Shown here piece after piece: positions 3,449-33,086 of a stretch of 43,380 bases of DNA. The translations under genes and the position numbers were made by a program. Positions within the stretch are counted from its first letter, which is position 1. Each line of letters begins with the position of its first letter. The notes under the pieces are model-generated. The model saw only the letters and a list, made by a program, of their open reading frames with translations. It was not told the DNA's origin and made no database searches. The DNA is from a virus. The DNA lies in the IMG/VR virus record IMGVR_UViG_3300045988_062151, one strand, 5' to 3'.

Positions 3449-3696
3449 AATATACGATTGAGACAACGGAAGATGGATGGGTTGAAACGTTGGAGATCAG
3501 CGGTCATTCCTACGAGAAAAACTGGAAGAGGCGTAGCAGTGGTTGTTATCGGTGTGAAGAGGGAGATTTTACTGATCGCATAATTGCCGATGGATACGCA
3601 CCTGATTATTTGGGAGATGATCTGTATGAAGTTATTGATGAAAGCCCAAATGGGCTAGATATGCACAACTTAGTGCGTGATTATCTGGAGGAATGA
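3445..3696 (+). CDS. Hypothetical protein
   Basis: ATGA overlap with the upstream gene; acidic 83-aa ORF. Confidence 0.5.
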   Translation: MKYTIETTEDGWVETLEISGHSYEKNWKRRSSGCYRCEEGDFTDRIIADGYAPDYLGDDLYEVIDESPNGLDMHNLVRDYLEE

Positions 3697-4115
3697 CTAT
3701 GAAAGAGATTCTTTTCCGTGGTAAGCGGATTGATAACGGCGAGTGGGTAGAAGGTTATTATGTAAAAGCACTGGATATGTATGATAAGGAAATACATGTA
3801 ATTTTCGACACAACGGCAACTTTTTACTCATTTGGAGAAACATCTGGTTTTGAATTAGTTGACGCTGAAACAATCTGCCAGTGCACTGGATTGACCGATA
3901 AGTGTGGCAACAAGATCTGGGAAGGCGATATTATGCGAGAAATATATTGTCCGCATCATCCATACGAAGTTATTTGGGATGATGAACAAGGCGGATGGGC
4001 GTTAGGAATTGATCATGAGCCATTATATTACATTGGTAGCGAAAGCGGCGAGAAACACGAAGTAATAGGAAACGTATATGACAACCCGGAATTGTTGGAG
4101 AAAAGTAATGAATGA
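3693..4115 (+). CDS. YopX family protein
   Basis: The N-terminus ILFRGKRIDNGEWVEGYYV is the YopX-family hallmark as I recall it. Confidence 0.75.
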   Translation: MTMKEILFRGKRIDNGEWVEGYYVKALDMYDKEIHVIFDTTATFYSFGETSGFELVDAETICQCTGLTDKCGNKIWEGDIMREIYCPHHPYEVIWDDEQGGWALGIDHEPLYYIGSESGEKHEVIGNVYDNPELLEKSNE

Positions 4116-4620
4116 GAATGAAGTAGAAATCCTGTTGAGAGATATGCAGGAGTATCGTGAATTAACAAACCGTGTGAAAGCCATCTATGGAGATCAGATG
4201 ACTCTAAAAGATATGGTGGATGTAATGGAACGTATCATCCGGGAGCCGGGCAGAAAAGATCCTGTCAATGCCAGAATCCTTACATACGATGAAGCTGCCA
4301 TGTGGGATGAATACAGGAAAATCGGTACACCAGAAGAACTGAAAGCAGCATATAAGTATCTGCGACTGGTCAAGAAACATGGAACTGCAGGAAAAGCTAT
4401 TGATGCATGTGCAGAATATGAAGGAATCGGAACGGTGGAAGAATGCCGGGAAGCTATGGAGAAACAGAGAAGGAAGATTGTGAAAAATCAATATGGAACA
4501 AACTATGTTTTGAAAGCTGGATATTGCCCTGTATGTGGCTGCGGAGTTACAGCAAGATGGGATTATTGCCAGTGCTGCGGGCAGAAATTGGAGTGGGAGG
4601 AGACTGGAATTGAAGATTAA
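4108..4620 (+). CDS. Hypothetical protein with a C-terminal zinc ribbon
   Basis: Track ORF 4078..4620. I moved the start to ATG 4108 (GGAG 7 nt upstream). The C-terminus carries CPVCGC...CQCCGQKL. Confidence 0.55.
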   Translation: MNENEVEILLRDMQEYRELTNRVKAIYGDQMTLKDMVDVMERIIREPGRKDPVNARILTYDEAAMWDEYRKIGTPEELKAAYKYLRLVKKHGTAGKAIDACAEYEGIGTVEECREAMEKQRRKIVKNQYGTNYVLKAGYCPVCGCGVTARWDYCQCCGQKLEWEETGIED

Positions 4621-4930
4621 AGAGAAAATCAGGAAAGCAATTATAACTTACGCATTAGAGCATTACCCTAATGAGTTTCTTACACAGCCTAAAAATGTAC
4701 GGCGTGATACAGTTCGGGTAGAGACCGTGCAGGCAGTGACCGAAATGCCGAATGAAGTGTTCAAAAGTGATGAATACGTTATGTCAGAATGGCAAAAAAG
4801 AATTGTAATGGCAGAACTTACAGAAGCTCTTAAAGACTACATTACCATAACAGAATACGACGAGTTTAGAAAAGAAGGAAGAAAGAGGATTTTCAAAGCA
4901 AGTTTGAAGGTGGTGAGCGAAAAATGGTAG
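4610..4930 (+). CDS. Hypothetical protein (start uncertain)
   Basis: Track ORF 4535..4930 would overlap the upstream gene by 86 nt. TTG 4610 is preceded by GGGAGGAG at 4595-4602. Confidence 0.45.
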   Translation: MKIKEKIRKAIITYALEHYPNEFLTQPKNVRRDTVRVETVQAVTEMPNEVFKSDEYVMSEWQKRIVMAELTEALKDYITITEYDEFRKEGRKRIFKASLKVVSEKW

Positions 4931-13428: not shown

Positions 13429-14022
13429 ATGATTACCTTTAAGAGCAAAGAAGATGTGCAGACCATAGATGAAATCTATGCAGAGATCAATGCCCGGATG
13501 ATTGCGGCGCTTATGTTTCACAGCCAGATGGCGGATTACTTCGACTTCCTGGGCCTGCGCGGATATAAGCGCCTCCATGAATACCAGTATGTGTCGGAAG
13601 GAAAAGAGCGGCGTGAATTGAACCGGTATTACATCAACCACCATAACCGGATGATCCCAGATCGGTACGAAGGGTCTGTGCAGATGATTCCGGAAGGGTG
13701 GAAGAATGCAAACCGGATCAGTGTAGGTAAGTCCACAAAGCAAAAAGCCGTCGAGGATGGATTCAACGAATACCGCCAGTGGGAGTCTGACACGAAAGCA
13801 CTGTACGAAAAATATGCCGTTACTCTTCGGGATGGCGGTCATATTGCGGATGCTCTGCGCGTGGAAATGTTGGTTGATGATGTGGACGGAGAACTGAAAC
13901 ATCTGGAACGCATGTTGGTAGATCTCATTTCTGCCGGATATGACATGGTATACATCGTGGAGAGTCAGGACGCGATCCACGACCGCTACGAAAGAAAAAC
14001 GGCAAAAGTATGGGAGGTATAA
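13429..14022 (+). CDS. Ferritin-like four-helix-bundle protein (divergent)
   Basis: Helix-B-like GYKRLHEYQ...ERRELNRYYI, helix-C-like NEYRQWESDTKALYEKY and the C-terminal LVDLISAGYDMVYIVESQD align by eye with FtnA-type ferritin. The canonical ExxH motif is not evident. Confidence 0.4.
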   Translation: MITFKSKEDVQTIDEIYAEINARMIAALMFHSQMADYFDFLGLRGYKRLHEYQYVSEGKERRELNRYYINHHNRMIPDRYEGSVQMIPEGWKNANRISVGKSTKQKAVEDGFNEYRQWESDTKALYEKYAVTLRDGGHIADALRVEMLVDDVDGELKHLERMLVDLISAGYDMVYIVESQDAIHDRYERKTAKVWEV

Positions 14023-14024
14023 AT

Positions 14025-14456
14025 ATGCATGAATTACAAAAAGTGCTGGAAAAACAGCTTGAAACAGAAAGAAAAGAAGCCATAAACAAATTGACGTCGA
14101 ATAATCTGGATACGATTTTCAAGCTCACGACCGCAATCTGCAATATTAAGAAGCTGGAAGGTACGGAGCGCGAGCATTCGGCAGCACCTACGGCGGAGAT
14201 CGCGGAGGAAATCATCAGAAAATATTCCAATGGCCGGTATGACCACAACGTGGATGCACTCTACGATGCTTACATTGCCGCGAAACAGGCGTATAAGCAG
14301 ACCGGAGATCAGGGACACCGTGACAAACTCATGGAATCGGTTGGAAGACTGATGGTGGAAATCTATGATCTGTTATCTTCCATGATTGTAGACTCTGATT
14401 TTCAGGAAGAAAAAAAAGAGATCATGCACCGGATAAGGATGCTGTCTGAACAGTAA
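14025..14456 (+). CDS. Helical hypothetical protein
   Basis: Track ORF 14010..14456. ATG 14025 is preceded by GGGAGG at 14012-14017. Confidence 0.55.
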   Translation: MHELQKVLEKQLETERKEAINKLTSNNLDTIFKLTTAICNIKKLEGTEREHSAAPTAEIAEEIIRKYSNGRYDHNVDALYDAYIAAKQAYKQTGDQGHRDKLMESVGRLMVEIYDLLSSMIVDSDFQEEKKEIMHRIRMLSEQ

Positions 14457-14499
14457 TATATTATTGTAACGTGGGTACAGATACAATCTATCACCACAT

Positions 14500-14837
14500 T
14501 ATAATTATGTTGTAACGAAAGTTACACACAGGTGCTTTGTTCTATTCATTTGTTCCTCCTTTCTTAGGTAGCACGCGTCCTTAAAAGAAACCGGTGTACA
14601 TCCTCCAAAAGGTGCACCGGGAGGTTGAAAAGCGGATGCAATTTCCGGCTGTGCATTATCCGGTCGAAGCCCGAACCGGAGCGCTTGGCAAGCGTTATAA
14701 CCCACGGCCTGCATGCGCCGTTAGTCCTCCGGGATAGCATGCATAGCGAATGCCTTGCGCCAAGGCTGGCAGCTGGAAAGACAGCATCCCCCCACGCAAT
14801 CCGGCATAGACGACGAAACCTGCCGGATTGCAAACAT
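14500..14837 (+). ncRNA. Candidate structured non-coding RNA / long tRNA leader
   Basis: No ORF here has a credible RBS. A perfect TATAAT lies at 14500-14505. A chain of hairpins follows: 14511-14526 (GAAA loop), 14591-14620, 14659-14680, 14681-14696, 14710-14743, 14752-14766 and 14796-14831 (11 perfect bp). Confidence 0.45.
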
Positions 14838-14921
14838 GGGAAGATATACCGTAAGTGGAAGCGGGGCAGACTGTAAATCTGTTGTCTTCGGACTCGGGTG
14901 GTTCAACTCCATCTCTTCCCA
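14838..14921 (+). tRNA. tRNA-Tyr: tRNA-Tyr (anticodon GTA), type II with a long variable arm
   Basis: Acceptor GGGAAGA/TCTTCCC is a perfect 7 bp. Anticodon arm is GCAGA-CTGTAAA-TCTGT. The variable arm is GTC-UUCG-GAC. T arm is GGTGG-TTCAACT-CCATC. Discriminator is A, and no CCA is encoded. The D stem is CCG/CGG with an unusual 4-nt connector. Confidence 0.75.
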
Positions 14922-15013
14922 TTGCATTACATTGGTGACAATTCCGGAAAACGTTGTCAATATGCTATTGAGAACAAACTGGTGGTATTCATGATGCTGT
15001 CAGACGTTCGATA

Positions 15014-15088
15014 AGGTGCGTAGCTCAGTAGGCAAGAGCAACCTGACCATACGGAGGTGTGTCGATGGTTCGAGTCCATCCGTACCGA
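15014..15088 (+). ncRNA. tRNA-like element (degenerate or non-canonical tRNA; CAT at the anticodon position)
   Basis: The D arm is good (GCTC-AGTAGGCAA-GAGC) and so is the T arm (GATGG-TTCGAGT-CCATC). The acceptor stem pairs at 6 of 7 positions (A1-G72 mismatch). The anticodon stem does not pair canonically. Confidence 0.4.
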
Positions 15089-15166
15089 TTACCCCGCCAG
15101 TGGTTTATCTGGCTGAATCCATTACCGCCGACGGGCGGTTAATAATCACGTTTAGGAGGATTATGT

Positions 15167-15814
15167 ATGCAGAATTATGAACAGATCTTACAGGAGATCG
15201 GAATTGAGATCCCGGAGGACAAAAAGACTGATCTGAAACAGAAGATGGACGAAAATTATCGTACCAAATCAGATTACGACAAAGTAGTTCAGAAACGGGA
15301 CGAGTACAAAGCATCTCTTGATGGCGTGCAGACCAAGTTGGACGGGTTCAAAGACATTAATGTGGATGATCTGAAAGGCCAGATTACTACTCTGACTACA
15401 GAACTTGCCAATGAAAAAGCAGCAAGAGCGGCAGATGCCAGAAAAGTCGAGGTAGAAAAAACCGTCAATGAATTTCTCTCTTCTACAGACGAGAATGGCG
15501 AAAAGAGGTACGAATTTCTGAATGATATCACAGAGAACCACTACCGGGATGCACTCACAGCAGAACTGGACAAAGATTCTGCAAAAGGAAAGTCCATTGG
15601 TGACATTTTCAAGGGAATGATTACCGATAAGGACGGAAACCAGAAAACCGGAATCTTCATTGACAAGGAACAGGCGGCAGCTACGAAGAAAGCGGCAAAG
15701 TTTACAACTTCGCCGACGAATAAGCCGAAGCCTGACGGACAGAAATATACCATGTCTGAGATTATGAAGATGAAGAACGAGAACCCGGATCTGGATATCA
15801 AAGCGTATATGTAA
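15167..15814 (+). CDS. Scaffolding protein
   Basis: Strong RBS AGGAGG is upstream. The 215-aa protein is acidic, K/E-rich and coiled-coil, and lies immediately upstream of the major capsid gene. Confidence 0.7.
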   Translation: MQNYEQILQEIGIEIPEDKKTDLKQKMDENYRTKSDYDKVVQKRDEYKASLDGVQTKLDGFKDINVDDLKGQITTLTTELANEKAARAADARKVEVEKTVNEFLSSTDENGEKRYEFLNDITENHYRDALTAELDKDSAKGKSIGDIFKGMITDKDGNQKTGIFIDKEQAAATKKAAKFTTSPTNKPKPDGQKYTMSEIMKMKNENPDLDIKAYM

Positions 15815-15895: not shown

Positions 15896-17068
15896 ATGCC
15901 ATTATTTGACCAGAAAAATTTTAATGGTGAGGTATTTGGTGCGTATGTCGACACTGTACCGAAGCTTAAAAGAAATGAACTTCTGAAATCCGGTGCGATT
16001 GTAGAGAAATCACAGTATGCAACCATGCTGCCGGATCAGACTGGCGGTAATTACATTACCATTCCGATCAAAGCAAGAATTGGTGGAACGGCTGACAACT
16101 ACGATGGTAATACGGACATTACCGCAGATTCCCGCGAAACCTTTACGCACGGAAGAATTGTTGCAGGACGTTCTCACGGTTGGACGGAAAAAGATTTCTC
16201 CTCTGACATCACCGGAGAGGATTTCGAACCGGCAGCGCAGGAAGTGGCAGAGTACTGGGACGACGTAGATCAGGCTACTCTTCTGTCTGTCCTGAAAGGC
16301 ATTTTCTCTATGACTGGCACGGAGAATCTGAAGTTCGTGAACGATCATACCTATGATGTGTCTATGGCTGCAACTGAGACCGGATTTAAGGAGACTACTC
16401 TCAACAACGCAGTACAGCAGGCGCTTGGAGACAACAAGGCAAAATTTAGCCTTGCTATCATGCATTCCAAGATCGCAACTGATCTGGAGAACCTGAAGCT
16501 TCTGTCTTACATGAAGTATAACGATGGCGACGGAATCGAAAGAGACCTGACTCTCGCTACTCTGAACGGCAGAACTGTACTGGTTGACGACGATATGCCG
16601 ACCACAACCGTTGCTGCTAAGTATGTGAGAGCACTGTCTACTGATCCGGGAGCACTGAAAGTTACTACTGCAGGCACCGATTCCGGAGAGGTAGCAAAAG
16701 CTACCGTTGCTGCTGATATTACAGATATCGCAGAGAATGAGTATGTTGTTCTCCTTCCGGCTGGAACTGCTTATACGACTTACGTGCTGGGCGCTGGCTC
16801 TATTGAGTACACCAACTGCGGAGCAAAAACACCGTATGAGCTGGACAGAAATGCGGCAAAGAATGGCGGTGAGACTACCCTCTACTCTCGTCAGAGAAAG
16901 ATCTTCTCTCCGTACGGTATTTCCTTCAAGTCCGGTTCCATCATCTCCCCGACTGATGTGCAGCTGGCAACCGGAAGCAACTGGGAGCTTGCGAACAACA
17001 ACGCTTCTGGAACGAAGAAATACTTCCCGATCAAGGCTATTCCGATCGCAAGAATCATCACTCGATAG
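15896..17068 (+). CDS. Major capsid protein
   Basis: 390 aa, directly after the scaffold gene, with size and composition typical of HK97-fold capsid proteins. No homology search was done. Confidence 0.75.
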   Translation: MPLFDQKNFNGEVFGAYVDTVPKLKRNELLKSGAIVEKSQYATMLPDQTGGNYITIPIKARIGGTADNYDGNTDITADSRETFTHGRIVAGRSHGWTEKDFSSDITGEDFEPAAQEVAEYWDDVDQATLLSVLKGIFSMTGTENLKFVNDHTYDVSMAATETGFKETTLNNAVQQALGDNKAKFSLAIMHSKIATDLENLKLLSYMKYNDGDGIERDLTLATLNGRTVLVDDDMPTTTVAAKYVRALSTDPGALKVTTAGTDSGEVAKATVAADITDIAENEYVVLLPAGTAYTTYVLGAGSIEYTNCGAKTPYELDRNAAKNGGETTLYSRQRKIFSPYGISFKSGSIISPTDVQLATGSNWELANNNASGTKKYFPIKAIPIARIITR

Positions 17069-32980: not shown

Positions 32981-33034
32981 TTTTGTCCTTACGGCAGGCA
33001 AAGAGTGTTGATTTTACAGCAAAAATCAGTGTTT

Positions 33035-33086
33035 GAGCACTTGACTTTTAATCAAGTTGTCCGGGGTTCGAATCCCCGATGTCTCA
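33035..33086 (+). other. attP core: 3' ~52 nt of a tRNA-Lys(UUU) gene
   Basis: gagca-CTTGA-CTTTTAA-TCAAG-ttgtc-CGGGG-TTCGAAT-CCCCG-ATGTCTC-a gives a complete anticodon arm, T arm and 3' acceptor strand. The 5' acceptor strand and D arm are missing. It lies 190 nt from the integrase gene. Confidence 0.7.

Follow-up and report, generated by a model that had tools for sequence, protein, structure and literature searches.

RAGATH-21, an orphan RNA motif, in the probable scaffold-capsid leader of a gut phage where a single large structured RNA had been suspected

Among the structured RNAs of bacterial viruses, ROOL and GOLLD share a characteristic niche, being found in phages of Firmicutes beside transfer RNA (tRNA) genes (PMC5737381; PMC12286853). 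Co-transcription with tRNAs was suggested by Weinberg et al. as the reason for this vicinity (PMC5737381), and cryo-electron microscopy has revealed that both RNAs, encoded near tRNA islands, form RNA nanocages of unknown function (PMC12286853). Members of the first class are about 580 nt long, with multistem junctions and pseudoknots, and those of the second exceed 800 nt and feature a conserved 3' domain; these traits define membership in what follows. In this work, we describe a stretch of 710 nt, free of open reading frames (ORFs), at positions 14457-15166 of a viral DNA of 43,380 nt (IMG/VR record IMGVR_UViG_3300045988_062151; "the window" denotes this DNA at its full length). An earlier annotation of the sequence, hereafter the original prediction, had proposed that the ~340-380 nt preceding a tRNA-Tyr in this stretch may form one ornate RNA, a member or relative of the ROOL/GOLLD type or a new class. 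The suspected giant RNA instead breaks up into an orphan motif already described, the remnant of a second motif, a tRNA and a pseudo-tRNA: the window holds a new member of the RAGATH-21 family (Rfam RF03097), and the stretch is probably an untranslated leader of the phage scaffold and capsid genes.

The RAGATH-21 RNA, a four-stem junction, occupies positions 14570-14655 on the plus strand. When all 4227 Rfam families were scanned at their gathering thresholds, it was the only family other than tRNA to exceed its threshold in the region, with 72.6 bits against a required 70.3 (E = 3e-12 against the whole window) and an alignment covering model positions 1-76. Stem P1 is made of 14570-79 and 14647-55, with 8 of its 10 pairs formed and one bulged C; P2 (14591-99/14612-20, 9 bp) coincides with a 9-bp helix already pointed out in the original prediction; P3 (3 bp, GAAA loop) and P4 (3 bp, UGCAAUU loop) are short hairpins, both identical to the family consensus. 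About 35 unpaired nucleotides of the motif are near-invariant, and the conserved segments CCUUAAnAGAAAC, GAGG, UGAAAAG and GGAUGCAAUUUCCG are all present in the window. The modest score comes from the loss of 1 nt in the 3' strand of P1; close relatives reach 83-93 bits. At this place (14576 / 14647-14655) the window has lost one G with respect to all close relatives, reading GGC-TGTGCA where they read GGCGTGTGCA, and the missing G could be either a real mutation or an assembly error. More permissive Rfam searches (E <= 10), run on both strands of 14300-15300 and separately on 14656-14836 and 15085-15175, returned nothing credible besides RAGATH-21 and two tRNA matches.

Comparison by blastn with 50,697 phage records retrieved Dulem virus 35 (L002) and L001, a near-identical scaffold from the human gut. 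An exact-pattern scan of IMG/VR for the RAGATH-21 core gave 119 loci, which further scans brought to about 160 related gut-phage and prophage loci sharing the RAGATH-21 frame, with 103 unique versions of the extended motif. The RAGATH-21 score is above gathering in every relative tested. Among the 103 unique relatives, 6 of the 10 P1 pairs occur as at least two Watson-Crick types, positions 2-10 are paired in 94-103 sequences, and P2 is found with 23 distinct base sequences. The numbers of G-U and A-C pairs in P1, 87 and 25 respectively, fix the motif on the plus strand. Matches in bacterial genomes, mostly of Lachnospiraceae (Enterocloster, Blautia, Faecalimonas, Marvinbryantia, Lachnoclostridium, Mediterraneibacter and Eisenbergiella) plus a Ruminococcus metagenome-assembled genome (MAG), suggest that Lachnospiraceae are the hosts; matches in a few MAGs labelled Bacteroidales, Odoribacter or Akkermansia probably reflect mis-binning of phage contigs. 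Four nucleotides before P1, at 14555-14565 on the plus strand, conservation defines a pyrimidine box, box1 (CCUCCUUUCUU), resembling an anti-Shine-Dalgarno (anti-SD) sequence and found also in the bacterial genome and MAG matches.

Should RAGATH-21 then be regarded as one domain of a larger ornate RNA, whether akin to ROOL and GOLLD or new in its class, extending over the region upstream of tRNA-Tyr or over the whole 710 nt? Helices are dense here, and the 14656-14836 segment following the motif folds on the plus strand with -73 kcal/mol (z = -4.16, none of 200 shuffles being as good), as opposed to z = -0.42 for the reverse complement. The phage setting beside tRNAs fits as well, and the intuition of the original prediction about a tRNA-adjacent niche for ornate RNAs was sound, as three relatives (L055, L060 and L081) carry ROOL in the same slot. 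However, neither ROOL (RF03087) nor GOLLD is matched on either strand of 14300-15300 at E <= 10, while the same search tool, as a control, detects ROOL in L055 at 375 bits. Covariance models applied to 14400-15200, as had been proposed, thus bring out RAGATH-21 above gathering but no ROOL, GOLLD or other large RNA; the reservation that the element might be something else was well placed, the curated structured RNA upstream of tRNA-Tyr being RAGATH-21. Moreover, the modules are conserved independently. Box1 and RAGATH-21 occur in about 160 loci but the chain of hairpins downstream in a handful of haplotypes, which argues against one large RNA, and a perfect 11-bp helix at the end of the chain is a deletion stump. 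The check for homologues and covariation gave a similarly divided outcome: P1 of RAGATH-21 and the 5' untranslated region (5'UTR) of the scaffold gene covary, but the chain is limited to haplotypes ~94-95% identical. A single ornate RNA is therefore largely refuted, and we consider it extremely unlikely. The window is not a member of ROOL, GOLLD, HEARO or GP20-b.

The chain itself was searched for by blastn against the same phage records and ~200 collected loci, and by exact-pattern scans of viral and metagenome collections. It is restricted to the haplotypes L001, L122/L123, L228, L229 and L236, and no homologues were found beyond this group, except for a shared sub-module described below. 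No Rfam family matches 14656-14836 at E <= 10, and the six near-identical sequences available vary too little for a covariance model. The first part of the chain (14681-14751, plus strand) consists of lineage-restricted elements, namely a hairpin at 14681-14696, a GCAUGC helix at 14710-16/14737-43 and, between its strands, a CCUCC at 14726-30 that reads CCUAC in L228 and L229. It is followed at 14752-14787 by the hairpin GCCUUG/CAAGGC together with a conserved 24-mer, GGCUGGCAGCUGGAAAGACAGCAU. The long-range pairing proposed by the minimum free energy (MFE) fold of the chain was set aside in favour of local hairpins, because in the L127 clade the 14752-14787 module stands by itself, immediately downstream of RAGATH-21, and its stem shows compensatory changes.

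The 24-mer also has a distribution of its own. As a 23-24-nt motif, GCUG(A/G)CNGCUGGAAAGACAGCAU (14764-14787 in the window; L218, L221, L227, L230, L225/L235, L217 and L238), it is almost invariant in unrelated contexts: after RAGATH-21 in leaders, at the 3' terminus of the omega-RNAs of IscB (HEARO), where 20-30 nt separate it from the IscB start, twice around a tRNA, and ahead of U-runs. Its stem is of only 4-5 bp, and such conservation thus suggests a recognition site.

The 11-bp helix (14796-14806/14821-14831) could be explained by alignment with L236, the closest relative, where an intact skipping-rope RNA (RF02924; 59.3 bits against a gathering threshold of 36.7) with outer helix GCAAUCCG/CGGAUUGC is found at the homologous place. 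The window and its haplotype group show a clean internal gap of 63 nt with respect to L236, in which the outer helix is kept, with the addition of three fortuitous pairs, and the 3' ~23 nt of the RNA are retained. The skipping-rope model has no match in the window at E <= 10, its conserved core falling within the deleted 63 nt. The stump (14796-14831, plus strand) is accordingly a deletion remnant and not a family member. One of its pairs, G14803-C14824, is G-C in the window, A-U in L122 and A.C in L001.

Around RAGATH-21, gene order is constant in about 120 viral loci, with everything on the RNA strand: three small genes, RAGATH-21, a scaffold gene of ~210 amino acids, a capsid gene of ~390 amino acids and an adaptor. 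In the window the order is terminase, portal, SPP1-gp7-like minor head protein, genes of unknown type, the slot, scaffold, capsid and adaptor, which is best explained as an SPP1-like head module of a gut phage. RAGATH-21 belongs to a fixed 5' frame, composed of a -10-like box, a 5' hairpin, the CCUCCUU box, the motif and a hairpin, H5, directly after it (14659-14680 in the window, plus strand). The covarying two-hairpin 5'UTR, ~78 nt long and immediately ahead of the scaffold ATG, constitutes a fixed 3' frame. The interval from RAGATH-21 to the scaffold gene varies from 79 to 1230 nt (90 unique versions) and holds zero to three same-strand tRNAs, and its contents differ even between near-identical phages. 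The tRNAs found there include Met/Ile2-CAU, Ile-UAU, Tyr, Asn, Val, Thr, Ala, Gln, Ser and Leu, along with degenerate ones; skipping-rope RNAs are found in the L018 group and in L236. The full-length ROOL of L055 (4213-4771, within region 3622-4900) lies between tRNA-Met and tRNA-Ser, and L060 and L081 have a homologous ROOL segment of ~548 nt in the same slot, so that near-isogenic phages with and without ROOL exist. In Dulem virus 35, RAGATH-21 is directly followed by the scaffold 5'UTR, with neither chain nor tRNA.

Whatever the content of the slot, the scaffold ATG invariably comes 73-92 nt (mostly ~75-80) after the end of the last tRNA. Truncated T-arm remnants, found at the junction between the slot and the scaffold 5'UTR, suggest that the contents are exchanged by tRNA-mediated recombination, apparently using the T arm. 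A large sister clade (L131-L196, ~60 contigs, 31 unique versions) has an intergenic region of 247 nt (2935-3184 in L131, for instance) with no RAGATH-21 and no tRNA; retained are the -10-like box, a hairpin with AGCCUCCUUGUAAG, the remnant of a tRNA T arm and the scaffold 5'UTR. No other structured RNA here is widely conserved, yet RAGATH-21 is dispensable in this clade; it is therefore best seen as an accessory RNA rather than as a piece of a larger ornate RNA.

We propose that the region is probably an untranslated scaffold-capsid leader, with a slot for small-RNA cargo that would be co-transcribed with the head genes and processed by RNase P and RNase Z. The strand and order are shared, a -10-like box is followed by a 5' hairpin, terminators are absent and the last tRNA stands at an invariant distance from the structured 5'UTR, all of which favours a single transcript running into the scaffold and capsid genes. 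In the window the putative leader promoter is a TATAAT, a -10-like hexamer read in the sequence at 14500-14505 on the plus strand, with no recognisable -35. Among 106 unique relatives, 82 have a -10-like hexamer 60-135 nt ahead of P1, as opposed to 13% of background windows, and 66 have it with a TG extension (9% of background). The plus-strand hairpin at 14511-14526 (6 bp, GAAA tetraloop), recognised by sequence and fold, probably marks the 5' end of the transcript; unrelated hairpins fill its position in other clades. No intrinsic terminator was called by the scan of the region, and a search of the leader for a boxA-like antitermination sequence, judged by eye only, gave a weak similarity. 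Transcription would thus proceed rightwards from ~14512 through the scaffold and capsid genes, yielding one transcript, which host RNase P and RNase Z would cut at tRNA-Tyr and at a downstream tRNA-like element with intact acceptor and T arms. The expected products would be the tRNA-Tyr, which may supplement translation late in infection, a leader RNA of ~325 nt containing RAGATH-21, and, for scaffold and capsid, an mRNA whose 5' end is protected by hairpins.

Several observations weigh against a mere cargo slot in a common leader. The scan for consensus sigma-70 promoters made no call in the region, the TATAAT included, and other clades feature a terminator-like hairpin with a U tract ~12 nt before box1. 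Co-transcription and RNase P/Z processing are predictions, drawn solely from strand, order and tRNA architecture. The 180-nt chain, whose plus-strand fold is far better than that of shuffled sequences, is not obviously junk, and haplotype substitutions within it fall mostly in loops or linkers, with one clear compensatory pair. Finally, RAGATH-21 is always the first element of the slot and, together with the near-universal CCUCC boxes, hints at a specific, possibly cis-acting, role which the notion of cargo leaves unexplained.

The evidence on the boxes deserves to be given in full. When the 25 nt upstream of P1 are examined, a CCUCC(UU) box is found 2-12 nt before the stem in 84 of the 103 unique versions, as compared to ~4 in shuffles, and GGAGG does not occur there at all. 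Over the 40 nt immediately downstream of P1 the mean MFE is -10.3 kcal/mol, against -6.3 +/- 0.3 for shuffled sequences; the H5 hairpins found there, 59 distinct sequences unrelated to one another, covary. H5 is followed in 45 of the 103 versions by a second box, box2, (A/C)ACCUCCUU, which in the window is missing from its canonical place. Perfect anti-SD copies number up to three per leader; those of the window, at 14555-59, 14602-06 and 14726-30, are all outside the Rfam consensus helices. Possible partners of the boxes are the GAGG of J2/3, the scaffold SD, SD sequences in trans, and proteins recognising the 3' end of 16S rRNA. An extended pseudoknot between UUUCU of box1 and AGAAA of J1/2 was considered and is unsupported, because UUUCU is not kept across clades while AGAAA is invariant.

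A cis-acting, riboswitch-like switch may be built on these elements, in which the boxes would act as anti-SD, the GAGG of J2/3 as a decoy (an anti-anti-SD), and the state of the four-way junction would set the masking of the scaffold-capsid ribosome-binding site (RBS) or the stabilisation of the mRNA. The near-universal and strand-specific occurrence of box1, the presence of box2 after H5 and the invariant GGAGG/GAGG in J2/3 of RAGATH-21 would all be in keeping with it, as would the layout of Dulem virus 35 and L032/L206, a classic 5'UTR with promoter-like box, RAGATH-21, hairpin and an SD 79-92 nt later. Box1 variants are mostly C-to-U, so that pairing with G is retained, but this bias (7 against 3) is not significant. 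A pairing of box1 specifically with the RBS of its own scaffold gene was rejected, as no covariation signal was found (-11.99 for own pairs, -12.04 for cross pairs; permutation p = 0.95). The distance from box to SD, moreover, ranges over the whole 79-1230 nt, with excisable tRNAs between; the L131 clade does without RAGATH-21, and the longer pairing of box1 with J1/2 fails for the reason given above. We therefore regard such a switch as rather unlikely.

The same boxes could alternatively serve in trans. The 3' end of 16S rRNA consists of helix h45 followed by the anti-SD tail, and a leader RNA freed by tRNA processing might mimic it through its hairpin-plus-CACCUCCUU units, reshaping host translation late in infection by binding either SD sequences or those proteins or toxins by which the 16S 3' end is recognised. 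The multiple perfect anti-SD copies would suit this role, and box2, (A/C)ACCUCCUU directly after a hairpin, resembles h45 with its tail; a hairpin-plus-box unit is also retained in the clade devoid of RAGATH-21, and Rfam types the family as a small RNA (sRNA). No target can be named, however, tRNA-less loci have no terminator or other defined 3' end, and box2 is not at its canonical place in the window, whose CCUCC at 14726-30 is CCUAC in two haplotypes. A mimic of this kind is decidedly unlikely.

Read on the opposite strand, box1 is AAGAAAGGAGG, and in many loci this perfect SD is followed 4-7 nt later by an ATG, as if a small divergent protein were encoded; in the window the corresponding ORF, MNRTKHLCVTFVTT, has 14 amino acids. 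The ORFs mostly range from 1 to 36 amino acids, with a few longer chance frames, and the frame shifts between near-identical relatives; in Dulem virus 35 the ATG is directly followed by TGA, and several clades have no ATG. All flanking genes and RNA genes lie on the plus strand, and box2 has no minus-strand start codon. With neither ATG nor reading frame conserved, a minus-strand RBS was ruled out, and its probability is practically negligible.

A catalytic role may be considered on other grounds. RAGATH-21 is a compact multi-stem junction with many near-invariant unpaired nucleotides, located at an operon boundary beside tRNAs, which is a typical place for phage ribozymes, and the RAGATH name was given to motifs discovered near genes associated with twister and hammerhead ribozymes. 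By self-cleavage, or as another kind of catalytic processing element, it might split the upstream head mRNA from the transcript carrying tRNA, scaffold and capsid. No Rfam ribozyme family matches, however, and the ribozymes which, according to the 2017 discovery paper, came out of this approach and were published separately (twister, twister-sister, pistol, hatchet and hammerhead variants) do not include RAGATH-21, nor is the motif discussed in the main text (Weinberg et al. 2017, NAR 45:10811). We hold a catalytic role to be very unlikely. A literature search for a function of RAGATH-21 or skipping-rope yielded nothing beyond that same paper.

With these readings weighed, an untranslated leader with a slot for small-RNA cargo is the one we retain, and the remaining elements of the region can be described along it. 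The 710 nt lie between an ORF of 148 amino acids (14010-14456) and the scaffold gene, and no credible coding frame was found there, the plus-strand ORFs being only GTG/TTG frames of 27-83 amino acids which overlap RNA elements. An in-frame ATG at 15065, with GGAGG 7 nt upstream (15053-15142 for the whole), opens a frame of 25 amino acids inside the pseudo-tRNA, ending just before the scaffold SD; not being conserved elsewhere, it is probably fortuitous. The original prediction, which had seen no ORF with a plausible RBS between 14456 and 15167, was right in this respect, and its inventory of signals proved accurate too: the TATAAT and the helices at 14511-14526, 14591-14599/14612-14620, 14659-14680, 14681-14696, 14710-14716/14737-14743 (GCAUGC), 14752-14766 and 14796-14806/14821-14831 (11 perfect bp) are all present.

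The tRNA-Tyr (anticodon GUA, plus strand, with a long variable arm), placed at 14838-14921 in the original prediction, is called by ARAGORN as tRNA-Tyr(GTA) at 14837-14922 and matched by the Rfam tRNA model at 14840-14919, with 30.7 bits against a threshold of 29. Its MFE structure is a normal cloverleaf with a variable-arm hairpin, and the tRNA is sound; tRNA-Tyr is common in the slot of the relatives. A spacer of 91 nt (14923-15013, plus strand) follows, which has essentially no blastn coverage, no match being found across 120 loci.

The tRNA-like element announced at 15014-15088 is indeed recognised by the Rfam tRNA model (40.4 bits, plus strand), while ARAGORN makes no call. Its acceptor, D and T arms are preserved intact, being the only ones kept in the MFE structure; the anticodon arm, ACCUG-ACCAUAC-G-GAGGU, is disrupted, with a 4-bp stem, an oversized loop, a C at position 33 and, in the Rfam alignment, a 12-nt insert state replacing the anticodon loop. 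In its offset the element agrees with the tRNA-Met(cat) of L039 and others, and tRNA-Met is the tRNA most similar to it; it is a pseudo-tRNA derived from tRNA-Met(CAU). Elsewhere in the window, positions 33023-33078 give a partial Rfam tRNA match (29.5 bits, model positions 9-63) with no ARAGORN call, and may be a tRNA fragment, such as an attachment-site remnant.

The conserved scaffold 5'UTR (15089-15166, plus strand), matched by blastn in about 100 loci, comprises hairpin A (15096-15113), hairpin B (15124-15139) and the SD AGGAGG (15154-15159). Both hairpins covary (G-C/U-A and C-G/G-C exchanges, for example): of ~58 sequences, at least 56 are paired at 10 of the 11 positions, and 46 at the last pair of B. 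No Rfam family, GP20-b (RF03003) included, matches 15085-15175 at E <= 10. The gene that follows on the same strand (15167-15814) encodes, by domain match, a head scaffolding protein (PF06810, formerly Phage_GP20), after which comes the major capsid gene (15896-17068, plus strand). Farther upstream, a single ORF of 544 amino acids at 5788-7422 matches a domain of the terminase small subunit (PF03592) over residues 4-126 and domains of the large subunit (PF04466 and PF17288) over residues 158-534; it may represent a fusion of TerS and TerL, or else a frameshift may have been missed.

What is new here is comparative: a hot-spot ahead of the scaffold gene shared by orphan RNAs, and the anti-SD-like boxes and H5 hairpin around RAGATH-21. 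RAGATH-21, skipping-rope and ROOL, all orphan in function, share with tRNAs one hypervariable niche, the scaffold-capsid leader of a large family of human-gut phages. These phages are natural near-isogenic variants, each RNA being present in some and missing in others, and one clade having none. Cultured isolates with such prophages exist, namely Enterocloster hominis CLA-SR-H021 and Blautia sp. MSJ-19, and, together with the variants, they make the roles of the orphan RNAs experimentally approachable. The strand-specific anti-SD-like boxes around RAGATH-21 offer a concrete lead. In a more far-reaching reading, which we hold to be rather unlikely, RAGATH-21 would be more than cargo and would form with the CCUCCUU boxes a new phage leader device, either a switch of SD, anti-SD and decoy SD or a 16S-3'-end mimic released by tRNA processing, which would govern translation of scaffold and capsid or of host mRNAs and would mark a dedicated orphan-RNA slot of gut Lachnospiraceae phages.

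Set against described systems, the window copy conforms to the RAGATH-21 family over the full model, with the same four stems, junctions and GAAA tetraloop, and differs by the 1-nt deletion in P1; the Rfam model, in turn, omits the features that travel with the motif in phages, namely the upstream CCUCCUU box, the H5 hairpin and box2. With ROOL the locus shares the niche, but the candidate region is a third of the length of ROOL and is a mosaic of independent modules. The likeness to HEARO/omega-RNA (RF02033) is limited to the 24-nt motif at 14764-14787, shared with omega-RNA 3' ends in L218 and L230, and the window contains neither a HEARO match nor an IscB gene. GP20-b, a cis-regulatory motif upstream of GP20/scaffold genes, is positionally analogous to the scaffold 5'UTR of the window, which does not match its model; in L032 and L033 a GP20-b hairpin is found directly after RAGATH-21, ~25 nt before the scaffold SD. 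Lastly, like phage tRNA islands, the slot lies on the strand of the late genes, has a complement varying between close relatives and contains degenerate copies, but, unlike such islands in general, it is embedded in a scaffold-capsid 5' leader, between two conserved RNA frames.

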